DNA from: a virus | Lineage: Duplodnaviria > Caudoviricetes | DNA length: 58,119 bases | Direction: 5' to 3' (one strand) | IMG/VR virus record: IMGVR_UViG_3300035670_000245 | Span: 1 to 58,119 of that record | Part shown: positions 226-20,729 of the stretch, piece by piece | Position numbering within the stretch: position 1 is the stretch's first letter | How the letters are laid out: each line of letters starts with the position of its first letter | Translations under genes and position numbers: made by a program | The notes under the pieces: generated by a model | What the model was told of the DNA's origin: nothing | Databases searched by the model: none | Seen by the model: the letters and a program-made list of their open reading frames with translations, nothing else

Positions 226-960
226 ATGAAATCGAACCTCGCAATCATCGAAGATGCCGCCAAGTTTAACCTCGCCAAGTCTGACCCGAAACCGAAGGTT
301 CAGACAGTCGCTCAGGGAGTGAAACTCCCTGTCCTGAAAGAAACCAACCCGATCTTCGATCGGCCTTTCGGAAAAGATGGTCACACTCTAGGGGAAGCCC
401 TAGAGCATCAGGCATCAGTTTACAAGTCCCTTGTAAAACAGCGCAAAAATCAGCTTGAAAAGCTGAAGGAAATCGGCTTAGTCCTCTTGGAGCTTCGCTC
501 TGTATCCGGGGCTTCAAACAAAGATTATGGCATCCTGGTGTCGAAGACACCACTTTCCATAATGTCTCGCCAAGATCGGTACGATGCCTTGTGGCTTGCC
601 GAAAACTGGACTAATGTCCAGTCATACATGAAGGAGATGGATATCTCCTCGGGATCTGCCGCTTATCTTCGTCAGAAAATGACGAAGAAGACAGATGCTG
701 AACCGAAGGTTCAAAATGAGGTAAAGACTGATGCGAAGCCTTCGGCTGGTACGCAGTCTTCAGAGAAACCGGCTATCGACGAAGCTTCGTCAATACCTAC
801 CGAAGGTAAGACCGAAAACAAGACCTCTACCGAAGGTAGTGACTCGGCTGAGGTTTCGGTGGATAACGAAGAAGACTTTGCTTTGAGCATGGCTCAAATC
901 GTGGAGCAGTCCGGCCTTGACCTTAAAAAGGTCATTAACGCTCTTTTGAAACTTGCCTAA
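226..960 (+). CDS. Early protein, helical core plus low-complexity linker; possible DNA-binding regulator
   Basis: 244-aa ORF with AAAGGA SD; carries several CGAAGGT/TGACGAA motif copies in its coding sequence. Confidence 0.75.
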   Translation: MKSNLAIIEDAAKFNLAKSDPKPKVQTVAQGVKLPVLKETNPIFDRPFGKDGHTLGEALEHQASVYKSLVKQRKNQLEKLKEIGLVLLELRSVSGASNKDYGILVSKTPLSIMSRQDRYDALWLAENWTNVQSYMKEMDISSGSAAYLRQKMTKKTDAEPKVQNEVKTDAKPSAGTQSSEKPAIDEASSIPTEGKTENKTSTEGSDSAEVSVDNEEDFALSMAQIVEQSGLDLKKVINALLKLA

Positions 961-971
961 TGGTAAGGTAT

Positions 972-997
972 CCACGGGGGCTTTCAGCCCCTTGTGG
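972..997 (+). terminator. GC-rich hairpin after gene 2 (terminator or processing stem)
   Basis: CCACGGGGGC-TTTCA-GCCCCTTGTGG; no clear U tail. Confidence 0.4.
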
Positions 998-1062
998 GTA
1001 CATTTAAGGGCATCCGTGAGGGTGCCTTTACATGTACCTACACATCACAGGAGGATGTACAC

Positions 1063-1215
1063 ATGCGTATGCTCATACATGTCATACAAATGGTGGCACT
1101 GGCACATATGCTTTTGCTCACAGTCATGGCAGAGATGCACTGGCTCGCTCCCGCTCTCGTACTCGCTCTCATGGGCCTGTATGTCATACGGTATGCACTG
1201 GAATCAGAAGACTAG
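1063..1215 (+). CDS. Small hydrophobic early protein
   Basis: AGGAGG SD before ATG 1063; MRMLIHVIQMVALAHMLLL... Confidence 0.6.
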   Translation: MRMLIHVIQMVALAHMLLLTVMAEMHWLAPALVLALMGLYVIRYALESED

Positions 1216-1364
1216 GACTACTGTACAAATTGCCATTAGGGTTATCCCTAGGAAAATTTATTTCGTTTGTTTTCAATGACTTGCTGCACTGCACCACAGA
1301 GTTGGCACGATTCTTTCCCCTTTCTATAGGAGGGGGCCAGTTTTTTGCTGACCCTGATTTTACC

Positions 1365-1379
1365 GACGAACCTTCGTCA
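1365..1379. promoter_or_regulatory. Palindromic operator-like site GACGAA-CC-TTCGTCA
   Basis: One of six copies (778, 1365, 2567, 2996, 3395, 57699); directly upstream of an SD. Confidence 0.7.
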
Positions 1380-1399
1380 ATAACCTTAGGAGTGTGTAT

Positions 1400-2119
1400 A
1401 TGAAGCTTTTGTCTATCGATGCAAATTCCAAGCTTGCCAAGACCAATAAGGTAGTCGGTCAGGATTACCTGTATGCTGGCCTGTCCATGATGCCTGACCC
1501 GATCCTGTGCCCTGGTAGCAAGGCCGCACAATGCATGGATGCTTGCCTGAAGACCTCCGGTCTGGGTGGGGTTTTCCCTGCCATTGCACTGGCTAGACAG
1601 GCCAAGACCGACTGGTTCCATCGTGACATGACCGAGTTTGTGGAGGTACTAGTCAAAGATCTTCAGGCACTGGTACGCAAGGCCAATAAACTCGGCAAGA
1701 AGACTAGGGTCAGACTGAATGTCTTGTCAGACATTGCCTGGGAGAATGTCGAATGCTTCCGACTTGGCTCATGGCATGAGGGTATCCCCCAGGCTTTTCC
1801 TGAGATTGAGTTTTACGATTACACAAAACGGGCTGATCGTATCGGCAAGACTCCATCCAATTATCGCCTGACATTCTCCTACTCTGGTGTGCAATCGTAT
1901 GCTCGTCAGGTAATCAAGGCACAGTCTGCCGGGGCTAATATGGCTGTCGTTTTCCATGTTAAGAAGGGTCAGCCATTGCCGAAGTCCTGGCAAGGTAAGA
2001 CTGTCATTGATGGTGACGAGCATGATGCCCGTTACGATGACCCCCAGGGTGTGATTGTCGGTCTTCGGGCCAAGGGTAAAGCAATCAAGGACACAACCGG
2101 TTTTGTGGTGGCAGTTTAA
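1400..2119 (+). CDS. GP88-family phage protein (Cys cluster, possible Fe-S)
   Basis: CPGSKAAQCMDACL, RLNVLSDI, FYDYTK, DGDEHDARYDDP, VGLRAKG motifs. Confidence 0.75.
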   Translation: MKLLSIDANSKLAKTNKVVGQDYLYAGLSMMPDPILCPGSKAAQCMDACLKTSGLGGVFPAIALARQAKTDWFHRDMTEFVEVLVKDLQALVRKANKLGKKTRVRLNVLSDIAWENVECFRLGSWHEGIPQAFPEIEFYDYTKRADRIGKTPSNYRLTFSYSGVQSYARQVIKAQSAGANMAVVFHVKKGQPLPKSWQGKTVIDGDEHDARYDDPQGVIVGLRAKGKAIKDTTGFVVAV

Positions 2120-2144
2120 TTTTATAGGCACAGGAGAATTGACC

Positions 2145-2372
2145 ATGTTTTTTATCTACGATTGTAATGATCAAGTTGCAGGTAATCCTAAAGGCTATCG
2201 TACATTCCGGGGTGCTAATCAGCAGGCTAATGGCAGGAAGTCTAAGCTTTATCGCACACTATGGGACAGGTATTATGCCAAGCGTGAAGCCGACCCTGAG
2301 TGCAGACTAGTTAATCGCATTACGATTCAAGAGGAAGTAGAAAGTTCTACTTTCTTTTCACCGAAAGTTTAA
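2145..2372 (+). CDS. Hypothetical early protein (appears inserted; flanked by a duplicated GP88 3' end)
   Basis: AGGAG SD before ATG 2145. Confidence 0.65.
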   Translation: MFFIYDCNDQVAGNPKGYRTFRGANQQANGRKSKLYRTLWDRYYAKREADPECRLVNRITIQEEVESSTFFSPKV

Positions 2373-2440
2373 TGACAAGCAAGGATACAACCGGCTTTGT
2401 GGTGAGTGTGCAGTAGTTAGCAATTATGTGCCAGTTTTAC

Positions 2441-2456
2441 TGGCACTTTAATTGCC
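2441..2456 (+). promoter_or_regulatory. Sigma54-type promoter motif
   Basis: TGGCACTTTAATTGCC, GG-N10-GC; also one arm of an inverted repeat at 2420-2455. Confidence 0.5.
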
Positions 2457-2486
2457 TTTACAAATAAAAACAAATGTATGTACACA

Positions 2487-2549
2487 CCTTAGGGATAGTA
2501 TTTACCCCTTGAACCGAAGGTGAAAGGGGAGTAAATACATCCCTGAAGG
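2487..2549 (+). promoter_or_regulatory. Long bulged leader hairpin (RNase III site-like), homologous to 57927..57984
   Basis: AGGGAT/ATCCCT, GTATTTAC/GTAAATAC, CCCTT/AAGGG, GA/GA internal loop, ACC-GAA-GGT apex. Confidence 0.65.
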
Positions 2550-2566
2550 GTAGCAGTGAACGGCAA

Positions 2567-2582
2567 TGACGAACATTCGTCA
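2567..2582. promoter_or_regulatory. Palindromic operator-like site TGACGAA-CA-TTCGTCA
   Basis: Upstream of AAAGGA SD of gene 2603. Confidence 0.7.
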
Positions 2583-2602
2583 ATAACTTGAAAGGAATCG
2601 CC

Positions 2603-2995
2603 ATGCAAGTAAAGATCATCCGCAATTCCCACCATGTGATCTTCTCACAGATCCACAAGCAAGCCCATGAGGCTGGCATGAAGGCTGGAACCGATGCCCT
2701 CCCCTCCCCTATGGTAGTGAGTGAGGCTGACATCCAGGGTAACCCTGTCGGCAAGTCCTGGTTTGTGTCTGAGGGTGCCTGTGGATTTGCCTGGGTAGCA
2801 TTCAAGGGCAATACAGCCTGGGGCAAGTGGGCGAAGAAGCAGGGCATTGCTAGCACTGCCTACCCCACAGGGTTACAGATCTGGGTTCACCAGTTTAACC
2901 AGAGCATGGCTCGTAAGGAGGCGTATGCCAGGGCATATGCTGGTGTATTGCGAGAGGCTGGCATCGATGCATATTCCGGTTCCCGTATGGATTAA
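2603..2995 (+). CDS. Hypothetical early protein
   Basis: AAAGGA SD before ATG 2603; CGFAWV and QSMARKEAYA motifs seen in phage proteins. Confidence 0.75.
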   Translation: MQVKIIRNSHHVIFSQIHKQAHEAGMKAGTDALPSPMVVSEADIQGNPVGKSWFVSEGACGFAWVAFKGNTAWGKWAKKQGIASTAYPTGLQIWVHQFNQSMARKEAYARAYAGVLREAGIDAYSGSRMD

Positions 2996-3011
2996 TGACG
3001 AACCTTCGTCA
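2996..3011. promoter_or_regulatory. Palindromic operator-like site TGACGAA-CC-TTCGTCA
   Basis: Between a stop codon and the AAGGAG SD. Confidence 0.7.
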
Positions 3012-3031
3012 ACAAAAAGGAGACACACACA

Positions 3032-3388
3032 ATGGCTAAGATCTTTACTGACACTGGCGTGGCTGAGGCACCTAACACTGACGCATACAAAAGATGGGTT
3101 ATCTGTGATGTGTGCGAAGGGGAAGGGAAGCACTCCCATTCTTTTGGGTGCATAACATCGTCCGAGATGGACGAATGGAGTGACGAGGAGCAGTCCCGTT
3201 ACTTTGCTGGCAAGTATGACCGGCGGTGTTCCGATTGTGATGGCAAGGGCAAGGTGAAAGTATACGCCGAAGGTGCGCCCTTTTGGGTGCGTAGGATATG
3301 GGCCAAGGAACGCTGCTATGCGCAGGTGTCTTTTGAATTGGCACAGGAATACGCCAAGGAGCGGAGAATGCTTGGCGGTGGGTATTAA
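3032..3388 (+). CDS. DnaJ-type zinc-finger protein
   Basis: CDVCEGEG and CSDCDGKG (two CxxCxGxG motifs); AAGGAG SD. Confidence 0.75.
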   Translation: MAKIFTDTGVAEAPNTDAYKRWVICDVCEGEGKHSHSFGCITSSEMDEWSDEEQSRYFAGKYDRRCSDCDGKGKVKVYAEGAPFWVRRIWAKERCYAQVSFELAQEYAKERRMLGGGY

Positions 3389-3394
3389 TTTTAA

Positions 3395-3410
3395 TGACGA
3401 ACCTTCGTCA
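3395..3410. promoter_or_regulatory. Palindromic operator-like site TGACGAA-CC-TTCGTCA
   Basis: Immediately before the AGGAG SD of gene 3426. Confidence 0.7.
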
Positions 3411-3425
3411 ATAGGAGAAACGCAA

Positions 3426-3629
3426 ATGGCTCGTTACATATACATGGTGCAAGGGTGTGATCACAAATTCACCACCAAGCAAGAGGCACAGGACTATGCC
3501 TCGTTTGATCGGTGTATTGAGTTCATGCATGGTAAGGCACCTTCGATAACCATAATATCCCGGCTCACACCCAAGCAGTACAAACAAATGCAGGCTCGTA
3601 AACAACTGGCACAGGAGGCACAGCAATGA
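3426..3629 (+). CDS. Hypothetical protein
   Basis: AGGAG SD, ATG 3426; ATGA overlap with next gene. Confidence 0.7.
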   Translation: MARYIYMVQGCDHKFTTKQEAQDYASFDRCIEFMHGKAPSITIISRLTPKQYKQMQARKQLAQEAQQ

Positions 3630-3919
3630 AAGGCATCACAGTAACCCGTAACCCGCAGATCAAGCTAACCCTGACTGCCGACGATTGGCAGTTATATGAT
3701 GACGAAGACCACCCTGCCAGGGTTATGGTTGCCCTTGACCTGAACGCTAACATTCAACGGATATTAAATAATCCTTCCTTGCCAGACAGCATGAAAAGGA
3801 GGGCTTGCCGGAATTACCTGCGTGTTTATGACAATTATGGTGCGTCAGATACTGAAGGCAGGGATATGTTAGACACGATTTTTTCTGAGTTCTTTGGCCC
3901 TGAATATGAGGAGGCCTGA
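3626..3919 (+). CDS. Hypothetical protein
   Basis: GGAGG SD, translational coupling. Confidence 0.7.
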   Translation: MKGITVTRNPQIKLTLTADDWQLYDDEDHPARVMVALDLNANIQRILNNPSLPDSMKRRACRNYLRVYDNYGASDTEGRDMLDTIFSEFFGPEYEEA

Positions 3920-3921
3920 TC

Positions 3922-4200
3922 ATGAAATTCTACGGTTCGTATGGCAATCAGTACAGGTACAACAAGTTCGGAGATAAGGTGCCCTTGGCACAGCCCTCCC
4001 CTCCCCCGGTTGTGTCTGATGAGTACCAGATCAAGGTGTACATTCGGGAAGTGTACGGGAATACCCTGATCTATCCAGCCTGCAATAAGGCAAAACTCTT
4101 TGCTAAAATTGCAGGTACAAAAACCCTGTTGCCTAATGTATTGGAGAGTATCAAGGCACTGGGCTATACCGTAACCACAATAGTTAATCGGGAGGTTTAA
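3922..4200 (+). CDS. Hypothetical protein
   Basis: GAGGAGG SD; VYGNTLIYP...AGTKTL phage motif. Confidence 0.7.
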   Translation: MKFYGSYGNQYRYNKFGDKVPLAQPSPPPVVSDEYQIKVYIREVYGNTLIYPACNKAKLFAKIAGTKTLLPNVLESIKALGYTVTTIVNREV

Positions 4201-4202
4201 TC

Positions 4203-4496
4203 ATGCAACGCAACATGATTGGCAATGTAATCCGGGTCTATCCACCTGATGCACCACAAGAATATGTTGACTGCCTACTGGCACAGGTGGAACCCAACCT
4301 TGTCTGTGCCATATGCCTGGACACTGGCAACAGGCTAGATGACCCGTGTTTTGTACGCAATACCATGAACCTGACCAGCGAGGACATGGACAGGATACTA
4401 GGGAAGGGTGCCTGCTTTGATCTGCTGAAGGAAGCAAAGCACCCCAAGTGGCTAACAGATATGATGGTTAAACTTAAACCAGACTGGCCTTTTTAA
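4203..4496 (+). CDS. Hypothetical protein
   Basis: GGAGG SD, tight packing. Confidence 0.7.
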   Translation: MQRNMIGNVIRVYPPDAPQEYVDCLLAQVEPNLVCAICLDTGNRLDDPCFVRNTMNLTSEDMDRILGKGACFDLLKEAKHPKWLTDMMVKLKPDWPF

Positions 4497-4506
4497 GGAT
4501 ATAAAA

Positions 4507-4662
4507 ATGAGTGACAACGAAGCAGTGACCCTGGCATTCGACTTGCTAGAGGGTGCCGAGGTAGTGCAAGTATATGATGACACCCTGTGGATTAAGGTAG
4601 ACAGGGGTTCGTACAATGCACTGTATCAACACATGTACCCACAACAATTCACAGAGGAGTAA
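4507..4662 (+). CDS. Small hypothetical protein (51 aa)
   Basis: Not in ORF track; AAGGA SD, MSDNEAVTLAFDLLEG... Confidence 0.6.
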   Translation: MSDNEAVTLAFDLLEGAEVVQVYDDTLWIKVDRGSYNALYQHMYPQQFTEE

Positions 4663-4667
4663 TAACT

Positions 4668-4838
4668 ATGCTTATCGTATTCAAACTGATGTCCCTGGTG
4701 GTGTTCCTGATGTCTGCTTTGAGTCTGGTCTATGTCAACAGCTATGACATCTTTCCCCCGGCTCAGGCACTGGTACTCTCGGCAGGGTTCGCCGTGTCCC
4801 TGGTCTATGGTGTTTTAGGTGCAATCAGATCCAAGTAA
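4668..4838 (+). CDS. Small membrane protein (56 aa)
   Basis: Not in ORF track; GAGGAG SD, two hydrophobic stretches. Confidence 0.6.
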   Translation: MLIVFKLMSLVVFLMSALSLVYVNSYDIFPPAQALVLSAGFAVSLVYGVLGAIRSK

Positions 4839-4847
4839 GGAGGCATT

Positions 4848-5063
4848 ATGTTACCCACAGATTACCAACCCATGACGGTATGCTGGCGGTTCAGCAATGG
4901 TCACGACTGGTCTAAGGAATTCCCTAACGAACAGGAGGCATACCAGTTTATCCAGACCTGTGACCTGCAAGGGCATCCGAGTGTTACTCTTGTGGGTACA
5001 ATCACAACAGGTAAGGCTGGCACCAAGATTAACTACCTCAAGGGAGGGGACAACCATGCGTAA
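4848..5063 (+). CDS. Hypothetical protein
   Basis: AAGGAGG SD. Confidence 0.7.
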   Translation: MLPTDYQPMTVCWRFSNGHDWSKEFPNEQEAYQFIQTCDLQGHPSVTLVGTITTGKAGTKINYLKGGDNHA

Positions 5064-5424
5064 GGTATTTGTCTACCGTAATCTGCACAAGGATTGCTGG
5101 TCTGTTAAGGCACTGGACGGGGAGTTCAAGGGCAGGGTTATCTACCATGCCAAAGAGATCCCCCTCTGGGACTGCAAGTTCAAGGTCAGTGAGGCTGGCA
5201 GACAGCGGGTCTTGCGTGAGAGATCCAAGAATGTACATGCTGGTGTGGTTGGCTACATGTACGATGACATGCTGGCACCGGCAGTGCAGGCACCAATCCG
5301 TATTACCTACAATCCATACAGGTACAACTCTTTCGTAACTGCCGAAGGATTACAGGCAGTGGGCACAGCGGAGTATGTGTGCATGAAGAATGACAAGTCT
5401 GTGTGGGCATGGGCAACTCGTTAG
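5056..5424 (+). CDS. Conserved phage protein
   Basis: GGAGG SD; VYRNLHK...FKVSEAGRQRVLRE...KNVHA...YNPY pattern common in phages. Confidence 0.75.
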   Translation: MRKVFVYRNLHKDCWSVKALDGEFKGRVIYHAKEIPLWDCKFKVSEAGRQRVLRERSKNVHAGVVGYMYDDMLAPAVQAPIRITYNPYRYNSFVTAEGLQAVGTAEYVCMKNDKSVWAWATR

Positions 5425-5434
5425 GAGAACTGAA

Positions 5435-5569
5435 ATGTACGATCACAATCGTAAGAATTCTTTACTCATTATTTTAGGTACAAGTCTGGCAGTGGTAGGA
5501 TTTGTAGGTATAATCTGGTTCACGGCACTACTCTTTGCCGCATTCGGAGTACAGATGGGAGGTATCTAA
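5435..5569 (+). CDS. Small membrane protein (44 aa)
   Basis: Not in ORF track; AGGAG SD, long hydrophobic stretch. Confidence 0.55.
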   Translation: MYDHNRKNSLLIILGTSLAVVGFVGIIWFTALLFAAFGVQMGGI

Positions 5570-5977
5570 TTGTCTTTCAGACCATTCACCCAAACCAAGA
5601 TGCTAATCAACAACCCCAAAGGGAGGAAGCTAAACAAGTATGGTGCCCCGGAAGATATCGTTAGTCACCAATGGGTGCATACCAATGCACGGTTCACTCA
5701 CGGTTGCCCCGAGGTCAAGCAAGCATTCAGTACAGAGACACCCTTCAAGGCACTGGGCTGGGAAGTAAAGCCTGGGTGTCCGACAGAGTCGGTCTATGTC
5801 TGGTGGTATGCCGACTGCCCTGTGTCTGATGACCTTATGTTGTCTATCGAAACCAACAAGGAAATGCCACACAAGTTCCTAGATTTTGTAGCTAAGAAGT
5901 ACAATGTGCAGGTGAAGTATGAGCAGTACAATCCATCGCAGTCCCTTTATCCAACAGCATCAACCATCAATCCTTAA
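5570..5977 (+). CDS. Hypothetical protein
   Basis: GGAGG SD before TTG start. Confidence 0.65.
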   Translation: MSFRPFTQTKMLINNPKGRKLNKYGAPEDIVSHQWVHTNARFTHGCPEVKQAFSTETPFKALGWEVKPGCPTESVYVWWYADCPVSDDLMLSIETNKEMPHKFLDFVAKKYNVQVKYEQYNPSQSLYPTASTINP

Positions 5978-5988
5978 GGAGATTTACC

Positions 5989-6885
5989 ATGTATACATCT
6001 GACCTCATTGCCAACCTTGACAATGTCCTTCCCGCCCTGCCCCAGGAGTTGAACTTCACCCCGGTGCATGAACCACAGATCCGCAATGGCACTATGATTG
6101 GCAATGCATTCTGGGTTGTCAATCCCACCAATGATATGGTGATTGGCAATGGCAAGTCTGTCCACCGTACCGCTAACTTCGCTACCCTCTGGGATGCACT
6201 GCGTGAAGGGTTGGTCAAGGCTAACATCGACACCGGGAATGCCCAGGTAAAGTTCCATGCACTGGGTAATGGTGCCGCTATGTCTGCCGAGATAATACTC
6301 AAGAAGTACGATTTCGAGAAGAAGCTTGGCGAGGCCGCACAGTTGCGTATGCTGGTGCGTGACTCACACGATCAGTCCATCAAGCGTCAGGTACAGGCTA
6401 TGGTCTACCGTCTGGCCTGCCTGAATGGCATGATCTCAATGCGTGAACGGGTTGGTGTGGCTGAGAAGCACACCCTCAATGCTGATGCCGAGGTGCTGGG
6501 TAAGGTAGCTTCCGAGTTCCCTATCCGTCTGGAGAATGAGGCTACCCTCATGTCTAACATGCGTCGCATTGGCACTGACCGTGACCAAGACATCGACTTC
6601 TTCCGTAGGAATGTAGCTACCTACCGTACCAAGTCTGGTGTCAAGATCAACAACAAGTTCTTGGAGCGGGTTGTAGGTATCTACGATAATTACCGTGACC
6701 TGGGGCAGAATGCCTATCGTGTCTACAATACTCTGACACACCTGTCTACCCATGTGGAAGCACAGCGTGATGGCACAGAGGTAGAGCGTAAGCGTATCCG
6801 CATTGAGCAGGACATCGAAGGGGTTATTCATGGCGAAGAGTTCCGGGCACGGTACCTCCCAGATTCCCTGCTTCTTGCGGCTTAA
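5989..6885 (+). CDS. DUF932/DUF945-like phage/plasmid protein
   Basis: SHDQS...YRLACLNGM...KHT motifs; AAGGAG SD. Confidence 0.7.
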   Translation: MYTSDLIANLDNVLPALPQELNFTPVHEPQIRNGTMIGNAFWVVNPTNDMVIGNGKSVHRTANFATLWDALREGLVKANIDTGNAQVKFHALGNGAAMSAEIILKKYDFEKKLGEAAQLRMLVRDSHDQSIKRQVQAMVYRLACLNGMISMRERVGVAEKHTLNADAEVLGKVASEFPIRLENEATLMSNMRRIGTDRDQDIDFFRRNVATYRTKSGVKINNKFLERVVGIYDNYRDLGQNAYRVYNTLTHLSTHVEAQRDGTEVERKRIRIEQDIEGVIHGEEFRARYLPDSLLLAA

Positions 6886-6995
6886 GCCAGACTACAAGAC
6901 CCGGAACTGGGTGGCGAAGTATGCCCTCAGATCCGGGGCTGGCAAGCACAAGGCAGGTAAGCAGAAACCAAAACATAAACTGAAGGAGATACAAA

Positions 6996-7202
6996 ATGAG
7001 ACTGAAGATTCTGACTAGAGATGACATGAATAACATCATGGACACCCTCAATGATCAAGACAGGACTATGTCTGTGGAACAGGATGTAGACGGGTCTGTG
7101 ATGCTGGACATGGGTAATTTTCTGACTGCCTATGCCAATGCCACAGTGTCTTATGTAGCTAAACAAAAAGAGTTCAAGGCTATTCTTGAGGAGGCACAAT
7201 GA
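6996..7202 (+). CDS. Hypothetical protein
   Basis: AAGGAG SD. Confidence 0.65.
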   Translation: MRLKILTRDDMNNIMDTLNDQDRTMSVEQDVDGSVMLDMGNFLTAYANATVSYVAKQKEFKAILEEAQ

Positions 7203-7471
7203 ACATGGCTAAGATACAGACCACAATAACCAAAGAGGTTACTGGTAACGAGCGGTTCTGGATCGGTATGATCTTCGGTATCTTTTGTACCGTCTTGGTG
7301 GTCTTATCTTTGGATAAGATCTTTGGTGATAACTATCTGCCCTCTGCACTGGACATGCCCAAGGATGTCATCACTGCCTACAATATGGGTATCAAGGATG
7401 CACTGGTGGTGAACCCACCTAGTGCTGACCTTGAGAATGTCTGTGCCGCACTGTGGTCTAATAAACAATAG
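7199..7471 (+). CDS. Hypothetical membrane protein
   Basis: TM segment FWIGMIFGIFCTVLVVLSL. Confidence 0.65.
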   Translation: MNMAKIQTTITKEVTGNERFWIGMIFGIFCTVLVVLSLDKIFGDNYLPSALDMPKDVITAYNMGIKDALVVNPPSADLENVCAALWSNKQ

Positions 7472-7481
7472 GAGAATGGAC

Positions 7482-7691
7482 ATGGTTAAAGTATCTGGTG
7501 TGCCCTACGATGTAGAGTTACCCAACAAAGATCCCTTCAATGCTCTTGCAGATAAGATGTTCGATACTGGGTACAACACTGCATTAGAACTGTGTGTTTC
7601 GTACTTAGAACAGATGCATCAGCAACATAAAGAGATGCATAACTACTATCGGGTAGCGGCAGAGAACTTGAAACTTAAACTTAGGAATTGA
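7482..7691 (+). CDS. Hypothetical protein
   Basis: AGGAG SD before ATG 7482. Confidence 0.6.
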   Translation: MVKVSGVPYDVELPNKDPFNALADKMFDTGYNTALELCVSYLEQMHQQHKEMHNYYRVAAENLKLKLRN

Positions 7692-7715
7692 TAACTTAAG
7701 AATGGGAGCAGTGCC

Positions 7716-8642
7716 ATGCCTAGGAAGAATGGTATAGGTCTGACCGACTTAATCGATGAGTACTATCAAAGCCTAGACTACCGAAGCCTTAGTCCTGCTA
7801 CCCAGCGGGACTACAGGTACTGCCTCAATGCCCTGCTAGAGATCAAGCATAGGAACACAGTCTTTAGCAGGGCTGGAATCCAGACAATCAAACCACCCAA
7901 TGCACAGTTTGCCTACAATACCTGGGCAGAGAAGGGTGTGCCCTGGGCTAACCATTGTCAGGCAGTGGCTAGTAAGGTCTGGAACTATGCTATCAGCCTG
8001 GGGTATACAGAAGCTAACCCCTTCAGCAAGCTATCTAAAAGGCCACACAACCCCCGCAAGAATGTCTGGACTAGGGAGGATGTCAGGCTATTTCTAGACA
8101 CCGCCTACAGCAGGTTTCAGTGGCGGTCTGTGGGGCTGGTAGTACAGATGGCATATGAGTGGTGCCAGAGGCTGGGTGATATGGCTAACCTGACCTGGGA
8201 CAAGTACAATTTTGACCAGAAGGTGTGCAAGCTAGAGCAGTCTAAGCGTAGGGCAAGGGTAGAGTTACCTGCCACAGATGAACTACATGCTATGCTGGTT
8301 CAGCAGTTCGATGAGGTAGGGCACCAGAAGTATATATGCCCAAAGGTATATATGAATATTATCATAAATGATAATCCCTACAGTAAGTGTGAACTGCGTA
8401 GGGTAGCTAGGATAATCATGGATGCGGCAGGGTTACCCCAGCACTACCAGATCATGGACATGCGTAGGACAGGCACTGTCGAGATGGTCGATGCAGGTGT
8501 GCCCTTGGCACAGATCATGTCAGTCACTGGACACGCCAACCCTCAGTCGGTTAAGCCGTACCTTAAGAATACCTTAGCTTCAGCTACATCAGCGTTAAGA
8601 AATCGTTATGAATATAAACTTGCCAACGGTAGAAATCCATGA
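7716..8642 (+). CDS. int: Tyrosine recombinase/integrase
   Basis: SAM-like N-domain; catalytic QRLGD, QSK, DMRRT, VTGH and PY residues in the expected order. Confidence 0.85.
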   Translation: MPRKNGIGLTDLIDEYYQSLDYRSLSPATQRDYRYCLNALLEIKHRNTVFSRAGIQTIKPPNAQFAYNTWAEKGVPWANHCQAVASKVWNYAISLGYTEANPFSKLSKRPHNPRKNVWTREDVRLFLDTAYSRFQWRSVGLVVQMAYEWCQRLGDMANLTWDKYNFDQKVCKLEQSKRRARVELPATDELHAMLVQQFDEVGHQKYICPKVYMNIIINDNPYSKCELRRVARIIMDAAGLPQHYQIMDMRRTGTVEMVDAGVPLAQIMSVTGHANPQSVKPYLKNTLASATSALRNRYEYKLANGRNP

Positions 8643-8648
8643 TAGCCT
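8620..8648 (+). promoter_or_regulatory. Sigma70-type promoter for middle genes
   Basis: TTGCCA-N17-TAGCCT with TG extension. Confidence 0.45.
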
Positions 8649-8693
8649 ACTGCCAGGGCGCACCGAGGGTGAAGTATCAAAAGGAGAAGTGAC

Positions 8694-8960
8694 ATGAGTA
8701 TCGCAGCTATGAAGCAAGCATTACAGGCACTAGACCTGATAGACAAAGACATTGAGTGGCACGACAAATCACCGACTAGGAAATTCTGCAATCAAGCCGC
8801 ACACTTTTTACGACAAGCCATAGAGCAGGAAGAGGACGCAGTAGCGGCAGAGCGTGAGGCGTGTGCGAGGTTAGTTGAGGCCGATGGTCTGGCCCGTGGT
8901 GCAGAGGGGTATATGTTGACCAAAGCCGCAACAAGAATTAGAGCAAGGGGTGAGACATGA
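8694..8960 (+). CDS. Hypothetical modular protein
   Basis: AMKQALQAL...LRQAIEQ...AEREACA...IRARG modules. Confidence 0.7.
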   Translation: MSIAAMKQALQALDLIDKDIEWHDKSPTRKFCNQAAHFLRQAIEQEEDAVAAEREACARLVEADGLARGAEGYMLTKAATRIRARGET

Positions 8961-9544
8961 TTAAAACATGGCAAGAGCGATGCGAAGAACACCCAGACCA
9001 CGAGGGCATTGTGACTGAGCAGATGATTCGTGACCGTATGCAAGAGGAAATTGACGCACTACGCCAAGCCATAGAGCAGGCAGAGAAGCAAGAGCCTGTG
9101 GCGTGGTTTACTGATGACCACCGGGAAGACAAGTCAGCAACTACATACAGCAAAAGAATGGCTGAAAGATGGAAAGAAAAAGGCTGGCCTGTAACGCCCC
9201 TTTACACCTCACCTGTACACGCCAGCGACATATCGCAAGAACGTGTCGATGAAACGGGGAAAGAACGACATGAGCCTGTGGCGTGGATGATGATTAACCC
9301 GTCGCATCTATCAGGCAGCCGCAGTCTGCACTGGGAGCCGCAACAGTGGCATATCACCTGGGAGGCAGTGCCCCTCTATGTCGCACCACCAAAGCGTGAA
9401 TGGGTTGGGCTGACGGATGAAGCAGTTTGGTTGGAGTATCAGCAACTTTGGCCTTTCCATCCAGAAGAAGAGCCGACACTGGCTAAAGACATTGCGAAGT
9501 TTGCCCGAGCCATCGAAGCGAAGTTGAAGGAGAAGAACACATGA
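8957..9544 (+). CDS. Modular protein with EPVAW and KREWVGLTD repeats
   Basis: Two EPVAW...PLY units; ends AIEAKLKEKN. Confidence 0.75.
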   Translation: MIKTWQERCEEHPDHEGIVTEQMIRDRMQEEIDALRQAIEQAEKQEPVAWFTDDHREDKSATTYSKRMAERWKEKGWPVTPLYTSPVHASDISQERVDETGKERHEPVAWMMINPSHLSGSRSLHWEPQQWHITWEAVPLYVAPPKREWVGLTDEAVWLEYQQLWPFHPEEEPTLAKDIAKFARAIEAKLKEKNT

Positions 9545-9825
9545 ACGACTACGACAAAAGCATACACAGCAACCCAGACGCACAAGCATGGGCTAGATTT
9601 TTTATTGACACAATGGCAGAGCAAAGCTGGCGCATAGAAGACATCGACGAAGGGCTAATGACTGGGTGGTTTGCAAACGCAATGATGGCGATGCACGACC
9701 ATGTAAAGCGTGAGTGGGTTGGGCTGACTGATGATGACTATGAAGAACTGCTAGAGACTAAAGACTGGGGCGGTTCTTTAATTTACGCTGTTGAAAACAA
9801 ACTAAAGGAGAAGAACAATGGATAG
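9541..9825 (+). CDS. Modular protein with KREWVGLTD repeat
   Basis: Shares DNA repeats with the upstream gene. Confidence 0.7.
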   Translation: MNDYDKSIHSNPDAQAWARFFIDTMAEQSWRIEDIDEGLMTGWFANAMMAMHDHVKREWVGLTDDDYEELLETKDWGGSLIYAVENKLKEKNNG

Positions 9826-10213
9826 GGATAGACAATGCCCGAGTTGTGGTGGTTTTTGTAAGAGGTCTGGGTGTGAACGAGAGAATGTCAACTCACAGAG
9901 TGAACTGGCTATGCAAGAGATGGTGGCTGAGAACCAAAGGCTAGGTTTCTATGATGATGCCCCACCAACTTGTCAAGATAACCGACAGGTTGAATTAAAG
10001 AATGCTTTAGAATTACAGGAGGTTGTTAAAGAGTTCTTTAATAAGTTCCTCAACCGAGTAGAAGACAGTGACGAGGGCAAGCCCTTCAATCCTGTCATCG
10101 TTAGTTGCTGCCGTGCCCTGATGGTTCAGCCCTTGTCAGATATATTAGAGCGTATGCGTGTGCTGTCTGGTGCTAACCCTAACCCACTGTATGAGGAGAA
10201 AGACAATGCCTGA
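9818..10213 (+). CDS. Hypothetical protein with N-terminal Cys cluster
   Basis: CPSCGGFCKRSGC; coupled start. Confidence 0.65.
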   Translation: MDRDRQCPSCGGFCKRSGCERENVNSQSELAMQEMVAENQRLGFYDDAPPTCQDNRQVELKNALELQEVVKEFFNKFLNRVEDSDEGKPFNPVIVSCCRALMVQPLSDILERMRVLSGANPNPLYEEKDNA

Positions 10214-10385
10214 CATTACGATGTGCATGGGTGGAGACTGCCCACTAAAACAAGACTGTTATAGATACACAGCCAACCCGTCACCTTACTTACAGAGTTA
10301 CTTTGGTGAGATCCCGTATGACAATGAAGCAAAAGAGTGTGATAGTTTCTTAGACAACAGAATACAGGAGGAGAACAACAAGTGA
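10206..10385 (+). CDS. Small Cys-rich protein
   Basis: MPDITMC...CPLKQDCYRY; GAGGAG SD. Confidence 0.65.
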   Translation: MPDITMCMGGDCPLKQDCYRYTANPSPYLQSYFGEIPYDNEAKECDSFLDNRIQEENNK

Positions 10386-10624
10386 CCATACCCCGTGAAC
10401 GGGCTAATGCTGTGCTGAATACAGAGCAGTTTCTTATCCAGCTACTAAACCCACAGCTAACACCCAAGGTACCTAAACCCATACGCCAAATGGCAGGCCG
10501 GTTGCTGAAGCACTACCCCACTAGGTTTGACCTGGAGATGGTGCAATTGCACTGGACTAATGGCCTTATGGACTGCCCCTTCCAGCTAGACGATAGCCCC
10601 TTTGAAAGTGATGACAATGAGTGA
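10382..10624 (+). CDS. Conserved phage protein
   Basis: MTIPRER...TPKVPKPIR...LKHYP pattern. Confidence 0.7.
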   Translation: MTIPRERANAVLNTEQFLIQLLNPQLTPKVPKPIRQMAGRLLKHYPTRFDLEMVQLHWTNGLMDCPFQLDDSPFESDDNE

Positions 10625-11240
10625 TGTAAAATTAATCTGGTCTACCCCTGATGCCGAGAATCTTATTGCCTACATGGCACGGGTATCTAACCCTGAGAAC
10701 CAGGACAACCCCGACTATGAACGATTGCTTCGTTACCTAATGAAACACCAGCACTGGTCACCCTTTGAAATGGTCAATGTCTGCATGGAGATTGAAACCA
10801 CCAGGGATATAGCCCGACAGATTCTTAGGCACAGAAGCTTTAGCTTCCAAGAGTTTAGCCAACGATATGCCAAGGTAGATCTCTGGTCTTTACCTAACAC
10901 AGTACGGTTGCAGGATGAGAAAAACAGACAGAACTCTATAGAGATAGATGACCCTGAACTGCAACAGTGGTGGGAAGATGAGCAGGTGAAGGTGATACGA
11001 CAGGCTAACCAGACCTACAATGAGGCACTGAGTAAAGGGGTAGCCAAAGAGGTAGCCAGGAAGGTGCTTCCCGAGGGTCTGGTGCTGAGTAAGATGTACA
11101 TGAATGGTACCCTCAGATCTTGGATACACTATGTACAGTTGAGGTGTGGGCCAGAGACACAGAAGGAACACCGAGAGGTAGCAGAGCAATGCAAGACAAT
11201 CCTGCAAGAGATCTACCCGACAGTAATGAAAAGCCTGTAA
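10617..11240 (+). CDS. thyX: Flavin-dependent thymidylate synthase
   Basis: HWSPFE and RHRSFSFQEFSQRY signature; TQKEH. Confidence 0.95.
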   Translation: MSDVKLIWSTPDAENLIAYMARVSNPENQDNPDYERLLRYLMKHQHWSPFEMVNVCMEIETTRDIARQILRHRSFSFQEFSQRYAKVDLWSLPNTVRLQDEKNRQNSIEIDDPELQQWWEDEQVKVIRQANQTYNEALSKGVAKEVARKVLPEGLVLSKMYMNGTLRSWIHYVQLRCGPETQKEHREVAEQCKTILQEIYPTVMKSL

Positions 11241-11395
11241 CCCCTTGTCTACGGGTCTGTAACTACGATAAGGTAAGGGAAGTATGCGTTACATGTAACA
11301 GGACTAAGCAAGATCTGATAGCCTGGGGCAGTATGACAAACGAGCAGCGACTTAAACGAATGAAGGAGATTGAAAATGAAAGTTTACATAAGTAA
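11189..11395 (+). CDS. DUF1289-like small Cys protein (start uncertain)
   Basis: TPCLRVC...CVTCNRT...W..M...R pattern. Confidence 0.6.
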   Translation: MQDNPARDLPDSNEKPVTPCLRVCNYDKVREVCVTCNRTKQDLIAWGSMTNEQRLKRMKEIENESLHK

Positions 11396-11909
11396 CTATC
11401 GGTATCACTGGTACTCCCCTTATCCTCTTGTGGCTAAGATATTCAGGACGGATGACTGGGAAGATCCACGGGTAGAGAAGTGGGCTGAAAGCAGACTGCT
11501 TCAGGGAATATCCAAAGGAATAGAGAAGTTTCTAGATTTCATTCACCCCCGTATCATCTATGTCAAGATAGACAGGTACGACACATGGAATATGGATTCA
11601 ACCTTGAAGCACATCATTGTGCCTATGCTTAAGCAGCTAAAAGAAACAAAGCATGGTGCCCCTTTTGTGGACGATGAGGATGTACCAGAGGAATTAAAAT
11701 CTACCAGCGCACCTCCGAAGAAGGATGACTGGGATGTAGATGACAACCATTTCAAACGGTGGGATTATGTACTGGATGAAATGATCTATGGCTTTGAGAC
11801 TGACCCTGACCTAGAGAACATTAGCATGGAGGAATACAGAAAGATCAATGAGAAAAAGCAAAAGGGTTATTTACTGTTCGGTAAATATTACCAATGTTTG
11901 TGGGACTAA
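11376..11909 (+). CDS. Conserved phage protein
   Basis: IDRYDTWNMD...WDYVLDEMI...LFGKYY.CLWD; AAGGAG SD. Confidence 0.75.
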   Translation: MKVYISNYRYHWYSPYPLVAKIFRTDDWEDPRVEKWAESRLLQGISKGIEKFLDFIHPRIIYVKIDRYDTWNMDSTLKHIIVPMLKQLKETKHGAPFVDDEDVPEELKSTSAPPKKDDWDVDDNHFKRWDYVLDEMIYGFETDPDLENISMEEYRKINEKKQKGYLLFGKYYQCLWD

Positions 11910-11975
11910 CCTACTAAAATGTACCGTTCGGTAAACATACAGATATAACCGCTTATCCATTTTAAAGGTGCAGAT

Positions 11976-12749
11976 ATGTACGCTAATCAATTCGTCAAAG
12001 AACTGGATCTAGCTGAGGGCTACACCTACAGGGGTGACTGCCCTGTGTGTGGTAGGAAGAATACTTTCACAGCCAAGAATGACATGGGTAATCTGGTGTG
12101 GAACTGCTACTCGCATAGCTGCAAGACATCCGGGGGTACCCGTACTAACCTGACAGTGGAGGATATAAAGAGACTTATTCTCAGACAAGAGGACAACCAG
12201 GATATAGAAATATTTTCCTTACCCCCCTATGTTGTAGTGAATTACAACAATGAACACCTAGCCAATGTCTGTGATGCCTATGGTCTGAATGCGACATTGC
12301 TGGATCTCAGGTATGACATCAAGGAATCTAGGGTTGTGTTTCCTATCTACCAGAATGGATTGATTGTGGATGCAGTAGGCAGGGGTAAGGCTAACTCCGG
12401 GGCACCCAAGTGGAAGAGGTATGGCAAGGCCAGGACAGCCTATGTCAGGGGCACACACCCTGTGGCAGTTGTTGTAGAAGATGCAATATCTGCCGCTGTG
12501 GTAGAGACTCTTGGTGGCACTGGCTTTGCCATCCTGGGTACCCAACTACTAGATGAGCATGTTCAGATGCTACGGGCTTATGAGCGGGTCATTGTTGCAC
12601 TAGATCCTGATGCAGCTACAAAGACTATCCAGTACAAGCGAGAATTGTTCTCCAATGGCATTGACTCCTTCGCCATGAACCTGTATGATGACCTGAAGTA
12701 CCGGACTGTAGATGATACAGAGTCTCTTAAAAAACTATTAGCGAGATAA
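11976..12749 (+). CDS. DNA primase (Zn finger + TOPRIM)
   Basis: CPVC...CYSHSC; VVEDAISA; ALDPDA. Confidence 0.9.
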   Translation: MYANQFVKELDLAEGYTYRGDCPVCGRKNTFTAKNDMGNLVWNCYSHSCKTSGGTRTNLTVEDIKRLILRQEDNQDIEIFSLPPYVVVNYNNEHLANVCDAYGLNATLLDLRYDIKESRVVFPIYQNGLIVDAVGRGKANSGAPKWKRYGKARTAYVRGTHPVAVVVEDAISAAVVETLGGTGFAILGTQLLDEHVQMLRAYERVIVALDPDAATKTIQYKRELFSNGIDSFAMNLYDDLKYRTVDDTESLKKLLAR

Positions 12750-12755
12750 TCACAC

Positions 12756-13979
12756 ATGGAACATGCACTATTAAAGTCGTTGATGCATAAAGAATTTTAT
12801 GATGACACAAGAGGTAACCGCTGTCCCGAGAAGATCTTCAGCAAGGATCTACGCAAGGTCAAGTCCATTATCGATAAGGCAATGGATACCTACCAGCGTG
12901 ACCTATCCTTAGATGAGATCAAGGCACTATTCTTTACCGAGAATCCCACACTCACTACTGCACAGAAGCAGCAGTACGAACTGCAATTCCAGAAGATTAA
13001 AACCTCCGAGACAATCGGTGCTGATGTAGCTTCCGAGATCCTGAGCAATATGTTCAGGCAAGTTGTCGGTGAGGAGGTAGCTAACCTTGGGTTTCAGTAT
13101 GTCAATGGTGAGCAGTCAAGCATGGAACCGTTGCGTAACATTCTGGAGCAATACCAGGATGACTTTACCCCTAGCATCCGAATCAATTATGTAGACAACA
13201 GCATCGACAACCTGATTCAGTCTGCATCCAACAGCACCAAGTGGCAGTTCAATATCCACAGCCTACACAGTGCAGTACCTGGGCTGGATAACGGTATGCT
13301 CTTTGTCATTGGGGCACGGTCTAATGTGGGTAAGAGTTCATTCCATGCCAACATATGTGCTGCCCCGAATGGCTGGGCACACCAGGGTGCCAAGATCCTT
13401 GTGCTATGTAACGAAGAGAAACCAGAGCGGGTAGCTAGCCGGTACATGACAGCAGCTACAGGCATGACGATGGCACAGATTGTAGCCAACAAACCCCAGG
13501 CACACAGACTCTATGACCCTATCAAAGATAACATCAAGTTTGTCGATGCTACAGGTAAGAACATGGGCTGGGCTGAGGCAGTGATTAAGAATCACAAGCC
13601 TGACATAGTCGTGCTAGATATTGGCAGTAAGTTTGCAGAGGATGGTGCAGCTAGTAATAACCATGAGACATTGAAGGCCAATGCAATCTATGCCCGTAAC
13701 CTGGGAAAGATGTATGGCTGTCTGGTGGTGTACTGCACCCAGCTATCTGCTGAAGCTGAGGGCAAGGTCATACTGTCACAGTCTATGATTGAGGGTAGCA
13801 AGACAGGACTGGCAGGGGAATCAGACCTTATGATTCTGATTGCTAGGAACCCCCCGCTTCAGGATCAAACGGATGACGATGGTCTTCGTTATCTAAACAT
13901 TACCAAGAATAAGATTACCGGCGTACACAGAATAGTCAACTGTGAGTTTGACTACCACACTGGCGTATACTCATCGTGA
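12756..13979 (+). CDS. DnaB-like (SF4) replicative helicase
   Basis: Walker A GARSNVGKS, NEE, DIVVLD, TQLS, KNK. Confidence 0.9.
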   Translation: MEHALLKSLMHKEFYDDTRGNRCPEKIFSKDLRKVKSIIDKAMDTYQRDLSLDEIKALFFTENPTLTTAQKQQYELQFQKIKTSETIGADVASEILSNMFRQVVGEEVANLGFQYVNGEQSSMEPLRNILEQYQDDFTPSIRINYVDNSIDNLIQSASNSTKWQFNIHSLHSAVPGLDNGMLFVIGARSNVGKSSFHANICAAPNGWAHQGAKILVLCNEEKPERVASRYMTAATGMTMAQIVANKPQAHRLYDPIKDNIKFVDATGKNMGWAEAVIKNHKPDIVVLDIGSKFAEDGAASNNHETLKANAIYARNLGKMYGCLVVYCTQLSAEAEGKVILSQSMIEGSKTGLAGESDLMILIARNPPLQDQTDDDGLRYLNITKNKITGVHRIVNCEFDYHTGVYSS

Positions 13980-16033: not shown

Positions 16034-16034
16034 T

Positions 16035-17791: not shown

Positions 17792-18227
17792 GAAAAAGAA
17801 TCATTGGTCTGCTGTGAAGAAGTCTGCGTTCCGCAGTGGGCTGGAAGAAAAGGTACAAAAGTATCTCACTGATAATGGTGTCTCTTTTAGGTACGAGACT
17901 ACCAAGATCCAATGGGAAGACAGAATGATTCGGAAATACACACCTGACTTCATTCTGCCTAACGGGATTATCATAGAGACAAAAGGTTTATTCACACCAG
18001 CAGACAGGAGGAAACACAAAGAGATTAAGAGGCAGCACCTATTCTTGGAGATCCGGTTTGTATTTGAGAATAGTAAACGCAAGATAAGCAAGCATAGTAA
18101 AACTACCTATGCTGACTGGTGTGATCAACAAGGTATTATATGGGCCGACAAAGTAGTGCCACTAGAATGGGCATTGGAAGAAGGCCACTGGGAAAATTTA
18201 TTTGACTACGAAGGAGTAAGAGTATGA
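17781..18227 (+). CDS. T7 endonuclease I-like resolvase
   Basis: FRSGLE, YTPDF.LPNGIIIETKG, IRFVF, YADWC. Confidence 0.9.
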   Translation: MPYKKKNHWSAVKKSAFRSGLEEKVQKYLTDNGVSFRYETTKIQWEDRMIRKYTPDFILPNGIIIETKGLFTPADRRKHKEIKRQHLFLEIRFVFENSKRKISKHSKTTYADWCDQQGIIWADKVVPLEWALEEGHWENLFDYEGVRV

Positions 18228-20608: not shown

Positions 20609-20612
20609 CTAT

Positions 20613-20641: not shown

Positions 20642-20651
20642 TACAGATTCC

Positions 20652-20675: not shown

Positions 20676-20729
20676 ACCACTGTTGTTTCTGTTGTTTGTT
20701 TTATCTTTTAACTTTACTTAGGAGTTTTT

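Follow-up and report, generated by a model that had tools for sequence, protein, structure and literature searches.

What are the six copies of a short palindrome doing in the early region of the virus record IMGVR_UViG_3300035670_000245? A first-pass annotation of this stretch of 58,119 nucleotides, which was analyzed in full and is referred to below as the window, described the element as TGACGAA-NN-TTCGTCA and proposed three possible functions: operators of a repressor or transcriptional roadblock, RNA stem-loops controlling translation, and recombination junctions. The analysis described here shows that the copies form a real, conserved, and lineage-specific operator-like array that is tied to an uncharacterized early protein family. 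The interpretation that we favor, with a probability of roughly 0.55, is that the six copies are duplex operators for a dimeric, sequence-specific, phage-encoded protein, most likely the product of gene 1 (positions 226–960). We infer from the comparisons of sequences and predicted structures presented below that gene 1 encodes the binder, and likewise that binding is dimeric and its effect repressive.

Copies were found at all six positions that had been annotated. The 14-nucleotide core GACGAANNTTCGTC is exact at 778, 1365, 2568, 2997, and 3396, and the sixth copy, at 57700 (GCCGAA...), has one mismatch to it. Only three of the six places (2567, 2996, and 3395) have an exact match to the full 16-mer TGACGAANNTTCGTCA, the copies at 778 and 1365 starting with CGACGAA rather than TGACGAA. 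A search of the window with the 14-mer, allowing up to two mismatches, gave six matches, whereas 100 shuffled sequences gave 0.84 on average and 3 at most, none of them reaching six; the 16-mer had no match in any of 100 shuffles. The first 127 bases of the window recur at its end, and the window is thus taken as a complete genome of 57,992 bp. All six copies are located inside 3.8 kb across the circular junction, and, in agreement with the first-pass annotation, none was found outside 57700..3410 in this 58-kb genome. As 22-bp elements, and with no strand assigned to any of them, the sites are as follows:

57696..57717, no strand: site 1, CATTGCCGAACCTTCGTCAATA, with one arm mismatch; located 522 nt before the ATG of gene 1 and 49 nt before the first sigma-54-like match
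774..795, no strand: site 2, within gene 1 (226–960), in the DNA for a disordered linker, where it reads IDEASS
1361..1382, no strand: site 3, ending 18 nt upstream of the ATG that starts the GP88-family gene 1400–2119
2564..2585, no strand: site 4, in the leader between a sigma-70-like promoter element (P element, 2502–2534) and gene 2603–2995
2993..3014, no strand: site 5, which begins with the TAA stop codon of gene 2603–2995 and precedes gene 3032–3388
3392..3413, no strand: site 6, before gene 3426–3629; together with site 5 it brackets gene 3032–3388

The copies at 1365, 2567, 2996, and 3395 stand before a Shine–Dalgarno sequence and a start codon, as had been noted, with 22, 22, 22, and 17 nt, respectively, between the end of the 14-mer and the ATG. 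Two copies had been described as directly following a stop codon. This applies to the copy at 2996, which begins right after the TAA at 2993–2995, whereas the copy at 3395 lies 6 nt past the TAA of the preceding gene (3386–3388) and directly after a second in-frame TAA. The reported ATA downstream of most copies is part of a 3′ extension, AATA, that follows five of the six (AACA at 2996), and the center is indeed variable, with GC, CC, CA, CC, CC, and CC as the central dinucleotides. Site 3 is preceded by a terminator-like hairpin (1316–1336) with a T-run. Inverted half-sites that had been noticed at 667–687 are present in an everted arrangement; since the left half encodes an invariant YLRQ and the closest relative (loci L038/L039) lacks the right half, we regard this arrangement as a coincidence.

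Using the gene-1 protein as a handle, 38 related loci were collected, seven on viral contigs and 31 in metagenomes. The core CGAANNTTCG occurs 151 times in the window and these loci (257,592 bases in total) and 1–7 times in 20 shuffles, and its positions are conserved; the motif is therefore neither absent from relatives nor randomly placed in them. An upstream site is found 236–919 nt before gene 1 in all 23 loci with sufficient upstream DNA, the remaining seven loci holding only 40–407 nt of upstream DNA, and a site inside gene 1, at +470..+600, is found in 29 out of 30 loci, with more sites downstream. Approximately half of the non-redundant sites (53/107) are followed by a Shine–Dalgarno sequence, a start codon, and an open reading frame (ORF), the start codon lying 12–23 nt past the site in 51 of these 53. 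Relatives carry 5–11 copies, and in two larger records the sites are again clustered (all six within 6.3 of 27.4 kb; all five within 3.3 of 24.8 kb). An exact 18-mer scan of viral contigs gave 32 loci with one match each, which were set aside as apparent chance singletons on the basis of an estimate from the size of the collection.

Alignment of 106 non-redundant sites, from which identical contexts had been removed, yielded the 22-bp quasi-palindromic consensus TA[G/C]TG[T/A]CGAA-NN-TTCG[A/T]CA[G/C]TA. Positions T4, G5, C18, and A19 are near-invariant (98, 106, 106, and 103 sites, respectively). Pair 6/17 has A or T independently on each side and is complementary in 51/106 sites (Fisher p = 1.0), pair 3/20 is mismatched in 78/106, and none of the 70 deviations at pairs 1/22 (40), 2/21 (19), and 4/19 (11) is compensated. 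The only limits on the center are the absence of A at position 11 and of T at position 12, together a two-fold symmetric constraint; within one genome, the arms are identical and the two central letters vary. The slightly asymmetric 22-mer precedes same-strand genes in both orientations (21 C-form and 19 G-form sites with a Shine–Dalgarno sequence and an ORF). Because the half-sites are independent, deviations are uncompensated, and both orientations occur, the element is best understood as a double-stranded site for a symmetric dimer and not as an RNA hairpin.

The DNA polymerase encoded in the window shares 60.1% identity with its counterpart in Puniceispirillum phage HMO-2011 and 53–59% with those of Roseobacter phages CRP-1, CRP-345, CRP-2, CRP-603, and CRP-207, and the window is therefore assigned to the HMO-2011-type podophages. 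Distant relatives contain palindromes of their own, which occupy the same places as the sites of the window clade:

CRP-1 and CRP-345: GTCCAANNTTGGAC, 5–6 exact copies
HMO-2011: GTCCG-N4-CGGAC, 5 copies
Locus L128: ACGGAATTCCGT, 5 copies
Loci L132–L134: TGTACAC-N4-GTGTACA, 9–11 copies
Locus L136: TGTCGGA-N3-TCCGACA, 5 copies

In CRP-1 and CRP-345, one copy is located within gp01 and one before the next gene, and in HMO-2011 the copies flank an unannotated homologue of gene 1 at 54165–54785. The GP88 and L5-gp82-like early genes are common to L128 and L132–L134, and a DUF932 gene is also present in L132–L134; tblastn searches of L136 for these three genes gave no match. No palindrome family was seen in L129, L130, and L135, which contain approximately 500 nt downstream of the gene, too little to speak against the pattern, or in L131, which is a weak match (27%). 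The window clade has TAG...GTA (or TAC...CTA) as the outer flank of its sites, and TAG...GTA recurs in the distant variants of L128 and L132–L134 despite their other inner half-sites.

The array and gene 1 occur together. A gene-1 family profile built from 62 members matches CRP-1, CRP-345, and HMO-2011 and gave no match in CRP-2, CRP-207, CRP-603, HTVC033P, CRP-235, CRP-3, and CRP-738; tblastn queries with gene 1 from the window or from CRP-1 lacked the sensitivity for this comparison, returning no match or only CRP-1 and CRP-345. A de novo search for repeated inverted repeats in 11 complete genomes showed 5–6 copies in exactly the four genomes that have gene 1 (the window included). In the other seven, which lack gene 1, the largest palindrome family has 1–2 copies, and shuffled sequences reach 2–3. 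Array and gene 1 thus agree in presence or absence in all 11 genomes, and from this co-occurrence we take the two to be one module, in which the site changes with the gene-1 lineage. Some copies in the CRP-1 lineage are found in other coding sequence: one lies in the integrase gene, approximately 260 nt before its end (CRP-1 6868, CRP-345 7079), and a second copy lies in a conserved coding region that follows the DNA polymerase gene (CRP-1 13621, CRP-345 14469). The latter is kept with one mismatch at position 13782 of CRP-2, which otherwise has neither the array nor gene 1.

Protein families in the window were assigned from PHROGs and Pfam hits of 76 ORFs at E ≤ 0.001 or 0.01. In line with the first-pass annotation, which had seen no classical CI-like repressor, these scans gave no recognizable repressor, either CI-like or gp71-type, although a divergent one is possible. 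The candidate for the binding protein is the following:

226..960, + strand: gene 1 (244 amino acids), candidate site-binding protein, on the basis of profile, structure model, and co-occurrence

The gene-1 protein has 152 metagenomic homologues, its family comprises at least 83 clusters at 50% identity, and it matches no PHROG. DUF3102, which is carried by 29% of one protein-atlas cluster, was considered for this protein and dropped, as Pfam did not confirm it. A structure model based on a 62-sequence alignment has a mean predicted local distance difference test (pLDDT) score of 78.7, with values above 90 in the core; an earlier model from 25 close homologues reached a pLDDT of 62 and showed no clear fold. 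In the newer model, residues 1–40 are disordered (the first eight being invariant) and are followed by a 40-residue helix, a helical core (residues 76–160), a disordered linker (158–212), and a two-helix C-terminal domain. The linker is hypervariable, yet it keeps [DV]E[AP]S[ST], the motif that the site encodes.

Structural comparison with VIA-align gave the KorB DNA-binding domain as the top match (8qa8_A: Z 4.5, root-mean-square deviation 3.5, 74 residues; 1r71_A: Z 4.3), followed by VirB (Z 4.0), SopB (Z 3.9 and 3.7), and P1 ParB (Z 3.3), all on residues 76–163. Since all these Z values are under the secure level, we treat the resemblance to KorB and ParB as a lead rather than a finding. 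As such, it would fit the architecture of the model, with a putative DNA-binding core, a flexible linker, and a small domain that resembles a dimerization domain. By analogy, it would also fit the use in that family of several short palindromic sites, some of them in or beside the gene of the binder; parS, for example, lies within spo0J. A search of Protein Data Bank sequences with the gene-1 profile gave nothing (best E 6.1).

Putative promoters in and near the array were identified by consensus or by conservation:

57940..57972, + strand: P element 1, sigma-70-like promoter (TTGAAG, 17 nt, TAATTT) within an inverted repeat that lies ahead of the first early ORFs; from consensus
2502..2534, + strand: P element 2, sigma-70-like promoter (TTGAAC, 17 nt, TAAATA), 33 nt upstream of site 4; from consensus
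57871..57885, + strand: sigma-54-type promoter match TGGCATGGCCTTTGC, predicted; kept in relatives with a variable 5-nt spacer

The two P elements form a 33-nt repeat (85% identical) with the inverted repeat CCCCTT...AAGGGG. In HMO-2011 and CRP-1, the palindromes come after homologous elements (TTGATACTTTAGTGAAAGT...), whose stem changes by lineage and whose loop-like center is kept; in these two phages, the palindrome lies approximately 20–35 nt downstream of the sigma-70-like element (TTGATA, 17 nt, TATAAC-like). A promoter consensus scan gave no promoter at any site. From this promoter context, we conclude that the sites are leader, intercistronic, or intragenic elements and not promoters. 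A promoter for a phage RNA polymerase was considered as well and rejected, given that no RNA polymerase is among the PHROG hits and that the palindrome follows a sigma-70-like element in HMO-2011 and CRP-1.

The sigma-54-type match at 57871 (TGGCAY-N5-TTGC) is kept in L039, L072, L073, L074 (twice), and L076. Weaker or ambiguous matches occur at 57764–57778 and 2441–2455 (early strand, non-coding), the latter being ambiguous because it doubles as the 3′ arm of a hairpin resembling a terminator. No sigma-54-type match was found in the early regions of CRP-1, CRP-345, and HMO-2011. Between the two sigma-54-like matches of the control region, a stem, GAAACTTCC...GGAAGTTT, surrounds a small hairpin (57800–57870; L039 100–155) that differs between the window and L039 with pairing preserved (AGCC/GGCT versus GTCC/GGAC). 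The stem has no match in Rfam and may be a structured leader or a small RNA. The available RNA run covers 9 out of 30 bins, and nothing on transcript starts is readable from it.

Within the interpretation that we favor, the gene-1 protein would be made first, from promoters in the control region at 57.7–58.0 kb. It would then bind the site upstream of those promoters, the site in its own gene, and the leader and intercistronic sites of the next early cassettes, and binding would modulate transcription of the early operon. The most probable modes would be autoregulation combined with shut-off or silencing through a roadblock or through local spreading, on the model of KorB at its OB operators, the phiC31 repressor, and the Cluster A repressors.

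Several observations weigh against this interpretation. The 11 compared genomes are not phylogenetically independent, and co-occurrence could reflect inheritance of one early module, in which case the binder could be another early protein or a host factor. A Pfam search with 62 gene-1 family members (E ≤ 0.01) gave no family, and thus no DNA-binding or ParB domain; every fold match has a Z value below 5, which is below the level that the aligner calls meaningful, and Foldseek found nothing for the gene-1 model at E ≤ 0.001. In the window, the AATA flank has one orientation in all six copies and the center is CC in four, which could reflect recent copying or a strand-specific role. As RNA, five of these six copies fold better than shuffled sequences (−5.8 to −8.6 kcal/mol, z −2.8 to −3.9). 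Finally, identical bases on one strand are favored at position 3/20 (G,G 41; C,C 34; G,C 14; C,G 11; Fisher p = 8e-7, not corrected for relatedness), which is not predicted by a strictly two-fold symmetric dimer. This bias may reflect weakening of an unavoidable mRNA hairpin beside the ribosome-binding site, or an asymmetric contact.

Early genes are gained, lost, and reordered among relatives, and many of the joints touch the sites. Gene 3032–3388, bracketed by sites 5 and 6, is missing in L038/L039, where one site is left, and the two extra genes of L038/L039 are each preceded by a site. In contigs from two other sequencing runs, a 925-bp replacement starts at 2996, so that site 5 forms its left end; another contig joint, 2114->3390, ends 2 nt before site 6, and in contigs of other runs the order of two cassettes is swapped. 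Gene order varies among relatives, and blastn blocks end at 2995, 3017, or 1350–1352 or begin at 1389, 2992, or 3391. The suggestion that gene gain and loss in relatives is bounded by the palindrome was therefore borne out in part: three of the five clear structural variants touch a site, and gene 3032–3388 is bracketed, but two variants involve no site, namely 24->226, which ends at the start codon, and 2092->2387, which lies between duplicated gene ends. Concerning the latter, the 3′ end of the GP88-family gene (2088–2119) is duplicated at 2381–2415, past a small ORF (2145–2372). Because a contig of another run lacks exactly 2093–2386, this small ORF is regarded as an insertion flanked by a short direct repeat. 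Since identical sites of 16–22 bp flank single-gene cassettes, they may serve as short homologies for gene gain, loss, and reordering. We read this gene exchange as a by-product: the sites are frequent joints but not the only ones, and no dedicated recombinase is indicated.

The remaining proposals can be weighed against these data. One is a role as hairpins of RNA (or single-stranded DNA) next to Shine–Dalgarno sequences, in which the sites would stabilize or process early mRNA, insulate translation, or bind a phage RNA-binding protein in the manner of nut/boxB or operator hairpins. Such a role would account for the many sites located a short distance before start codons, for the several that begin at or right after an upstream stop codon, for the better-than-shuffled folding of most window copies, and for the fact that, between lineages, both arms change together with complementarity kept. 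Within the clade, however, the arm pairs behave as described above, without compensation and with independence at pair 6/17, and a constant stem with free loop letters in one genome is the reverse of what is usual for protein-bound RNA hairpins. Moreover, both orientations are found on the transcribed strand, the L128 type ACGGAATTCCGT lacks any loop, and copies also occur upstream of promoters and within coding sequence. The window copies are weak hairpins as RNA (−3.6 to −8.6 kcal/mol) without a T-run, one of them folds no better than shuffled sequences (z −0.58), and an Rfam scan found no family at the sites. We therefore consider translational control by stem-loops, the second of the original proposals, unlikely. 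It is more unlikely still, and in our view quite improbable, that the sites serve as upstream activating sequences through which a host enhancer-binding protein activates the early sigma-54-type promoters. The sigma-54-type matches upstream of gene 1 are conserved in the window clade, in five loci site 1 lies approximately 100–190 nt ahead of the start inferred for the best-conserved match, and the T-variant of the site reads TGT-N10-ACA, the NifA-type motif. On the other hand, CRP-1, CRP-345, and HMO-2011 have arrays but no early match of this type, most copies are found just before start codons or in gene 1 rather than upstream of such promoters, no enhancer-binding protein is among the PHROG and Pfam hits of the phage, and the site changes with phage lineage and gene-1 family instead of tracking a shared host factor. 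On the same grounds, namely the lineage-specific change of the site, host boxes for LexA, CRP, or NifA were considered and rejected.

The joints described above could also mean that recombination is the primary role of the sites, as crossover points for a dedicated recombinase or as hot spots for a phage annealing machinery, with cassettes resembling PeSL elements or integron attC sites. The bracketed gene, the site-preceded extra genes, the 925-bp replacement, the 2114->3390 joint, the cassette swap, and the ends of several homology blocks all point in this direction. Yet the sites occupy intergenic gaps, so any cassette boundary would fall near one, and the conserved copies in gene 1 and upstream of promoters are no cassette borders. 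A tyrosine integrase is encoded downstream, at 7716–8642, as the first-pass annotation had noted. Tyrosine recombinase cores have inverted arms around a 6–8-bp overlap, and attC is a long imperfect hairpin with extrahelical bases; the 2-bp center of the sites, which varies between copies, is unlike either geometry, and PHROGs gave no serine recombinase. Hence, of the proposed recombination junctions, it holds that gain, loss, and reordering end at sites, whereas a dedicated site-specific system does not fit, given the center and the indels elsewhere, and we doubt strongly that recombination is what the sites are for. Least probable of all is that the sites are selfish palindromic repeats, similar to repetitive extragenic palindromic (REP) elements or miniature inverted-repeat transposable elements (MITEs), that spread in the early region without a phage function. 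Short palindromes at gene ends, some tolerated in frame in a gene, would be expected of such repeats, but orthologous positions are kept across lineages despite the changed site sequence, the copies are confined to a few kilobases and co-occur strictly with one protein family, and no REP-associated (HUH/RAYT-type) transposase is among the PHROG hits.

Known multi-site systems offer several points of comparison with the proposed operators. In the Streptomyces phage phiC31, conserved inverted repeats are bound by repressor c. Both have a palindromic operator in many copies that occupy short intergenic gaps of the early region, and a phage repressor, a role for which the gene-1 product is the candidate in the present case; they differ in protein family and in host phylum. 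KorB of plasmid RK2 is a ParB-family global repressor that acts at OB operators (PMC11790492, PMC13768133). Like OB, the sites described here are a short palindrome repeated a dozen times or fewer, near promoters, far from them, and within genes, and, as for ParB or KorB, the multiple copies include some in or beside the gene of the candidate binder. KorB is a dimeric helix-turn-helix protein that silences transcription, and KorB, VirB, SopB, and ParB are the best structural matches of the gene-1 core (Z 3.3–4.5); a DNA-binding core, a flexible linker, and a small C-terminal helical domain are features of KorB that the gene-1 model would share. Unlike ParB and KorB, gene 1 lacks the N-terminal ParB/Srx CTPase domain in 62 members, its residues 1–40 being disordered and followed by the long helix. 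Furthermore, the setting is a phage early operon and not a plasmid backbone, the fold match is below significance, and no ParA or KorA partner is among the PHROG and Pfam hits, although small unannotated ORFs could hide one.

Stoperators are asymmetric 13-bp sites that are bound by a monomer, occur genome-wide, and have an orientation that follows transcription. They are described for Cluster A mycobacteriophages with L5 gp71-type repressors (PMC9283540). The resemblance lies in the many copies in short gaps between co-directional genes, in the proposed block of an elongating polymerase, and in the presence of homologues of L5 gp82 and gp88 in the window. By contrast, the sites of the window are palindromic, orientation-free, and restricted to a few kilobases, and no gp71-type repressor is among the PHROG and Pfam hits. 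Because they are symmetric and orientation-free, the sites are not stoperators in the strict sense. The broader proposal of a repressor or roadblock operator is the best-supported of those made initially, given independent half-sites, both orientations, a free center, and joint change of site and protein family.

Cluster O mycobacteriophages contain a 17-bp repeat, TGTTCGGNNNCCGAACA, in more than 30 copies genome-wide, for which no binder has been identified (PMC4351075). That repeat has invariant 7-bp inverted arms around a variable center and is found between, near the starts of, and inside genes, with no clear orientation rule, as the sites do here; the L136 variant, TGTCGGA-N3-TCCGACA, even has the same 7-3-7 geometry. 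Unlike the Cluster O repeat, the arrays have 5–11 copies in the early region only, one site per lineage, and a candidate cognate protein. The PeSL cassettes of T4-type phages are composites of a sigma-70 promoter and a terminator hairpin (PMC2839356, PMC4122927). In both cases, repeats between small non-essential early genes are the end points of insertions, deletions, and replacements in close relatives, but the present sites have no promoter consensus and only a weak hairpin without a T-run. No description of the array was found, and the strings “palindrom” and “promoter” occur zero times in an HMO-2011-type comparative paper (PMC9038755) and a CRP phage paper (PMC6918029), supplements excluded.

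The genome surrounding the array has a G+C content of 44.5% and consists of two gene arms, with early and replication genes running rightward (approximately 1–23.5 kb) and virion and lysis genes running leftward (23.6–56.9 kb), separated by a 1.1-kb non-coding control region. The early region gave no blastn match to cultured phages. The control region contains three GCATGAT repeats and a separate palindrome, TGGTCAAAGATTGACCA (57459–57530 and 57625–57641). A small ORF encoding a hydrophobic protein of 55 amino acids (25–192) lies between the shared leader and gene 1; it is missing in L038/L039 and in the contig of another run with the 24->226 joint, where the leader is fused straight to the gene-1 ATG. 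In the replication genes, a group I intron at 21731–21931 (Rfam RF00028, 84.9 bits) interrupts the ribonucleotide reductase gene (20730–21743 and 22514–23365), and an HNH/endonuclease VII-like ORF (22015–22464) is located 3′ of the intron.

HMO-2011-type phages are among the most abundant marine virus groups, and the clade of the window is common in fresh water; to our knowledge, gene control in these phages has not been described. As a bolder and tentative proposal, which we regard as possible but doubtful, the gene-1 family may constitute a new class of master regulators in phages, in which a KorB/ParB-like core occurs without a CTPase domain. It would be made first and would read a lineage-specific array that includes a site in the DNA for its own linker, switching the early cassettes of HMO-2011-type and related aquatic podophages; at least seven specificities would have evolved, the sites would also serve as joints for gene exchange, and in the freshwater clade the system would be wired to host sigma-54 promoters. 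A defined cis element, a candidate trans factor, and no fewer than seven natural variants in specificity are thereby available, which makes the array a ready-made test system for protein–DNA co-evolution. With the cultured pairs of CRP-1 and CRP-345 and their RCA hosts, and of HMO-2011 and IMCC1322, the array is directly testable, and it also explains where the hypervariable early cassettes of HMO-2011-type phages are cut and pasted.

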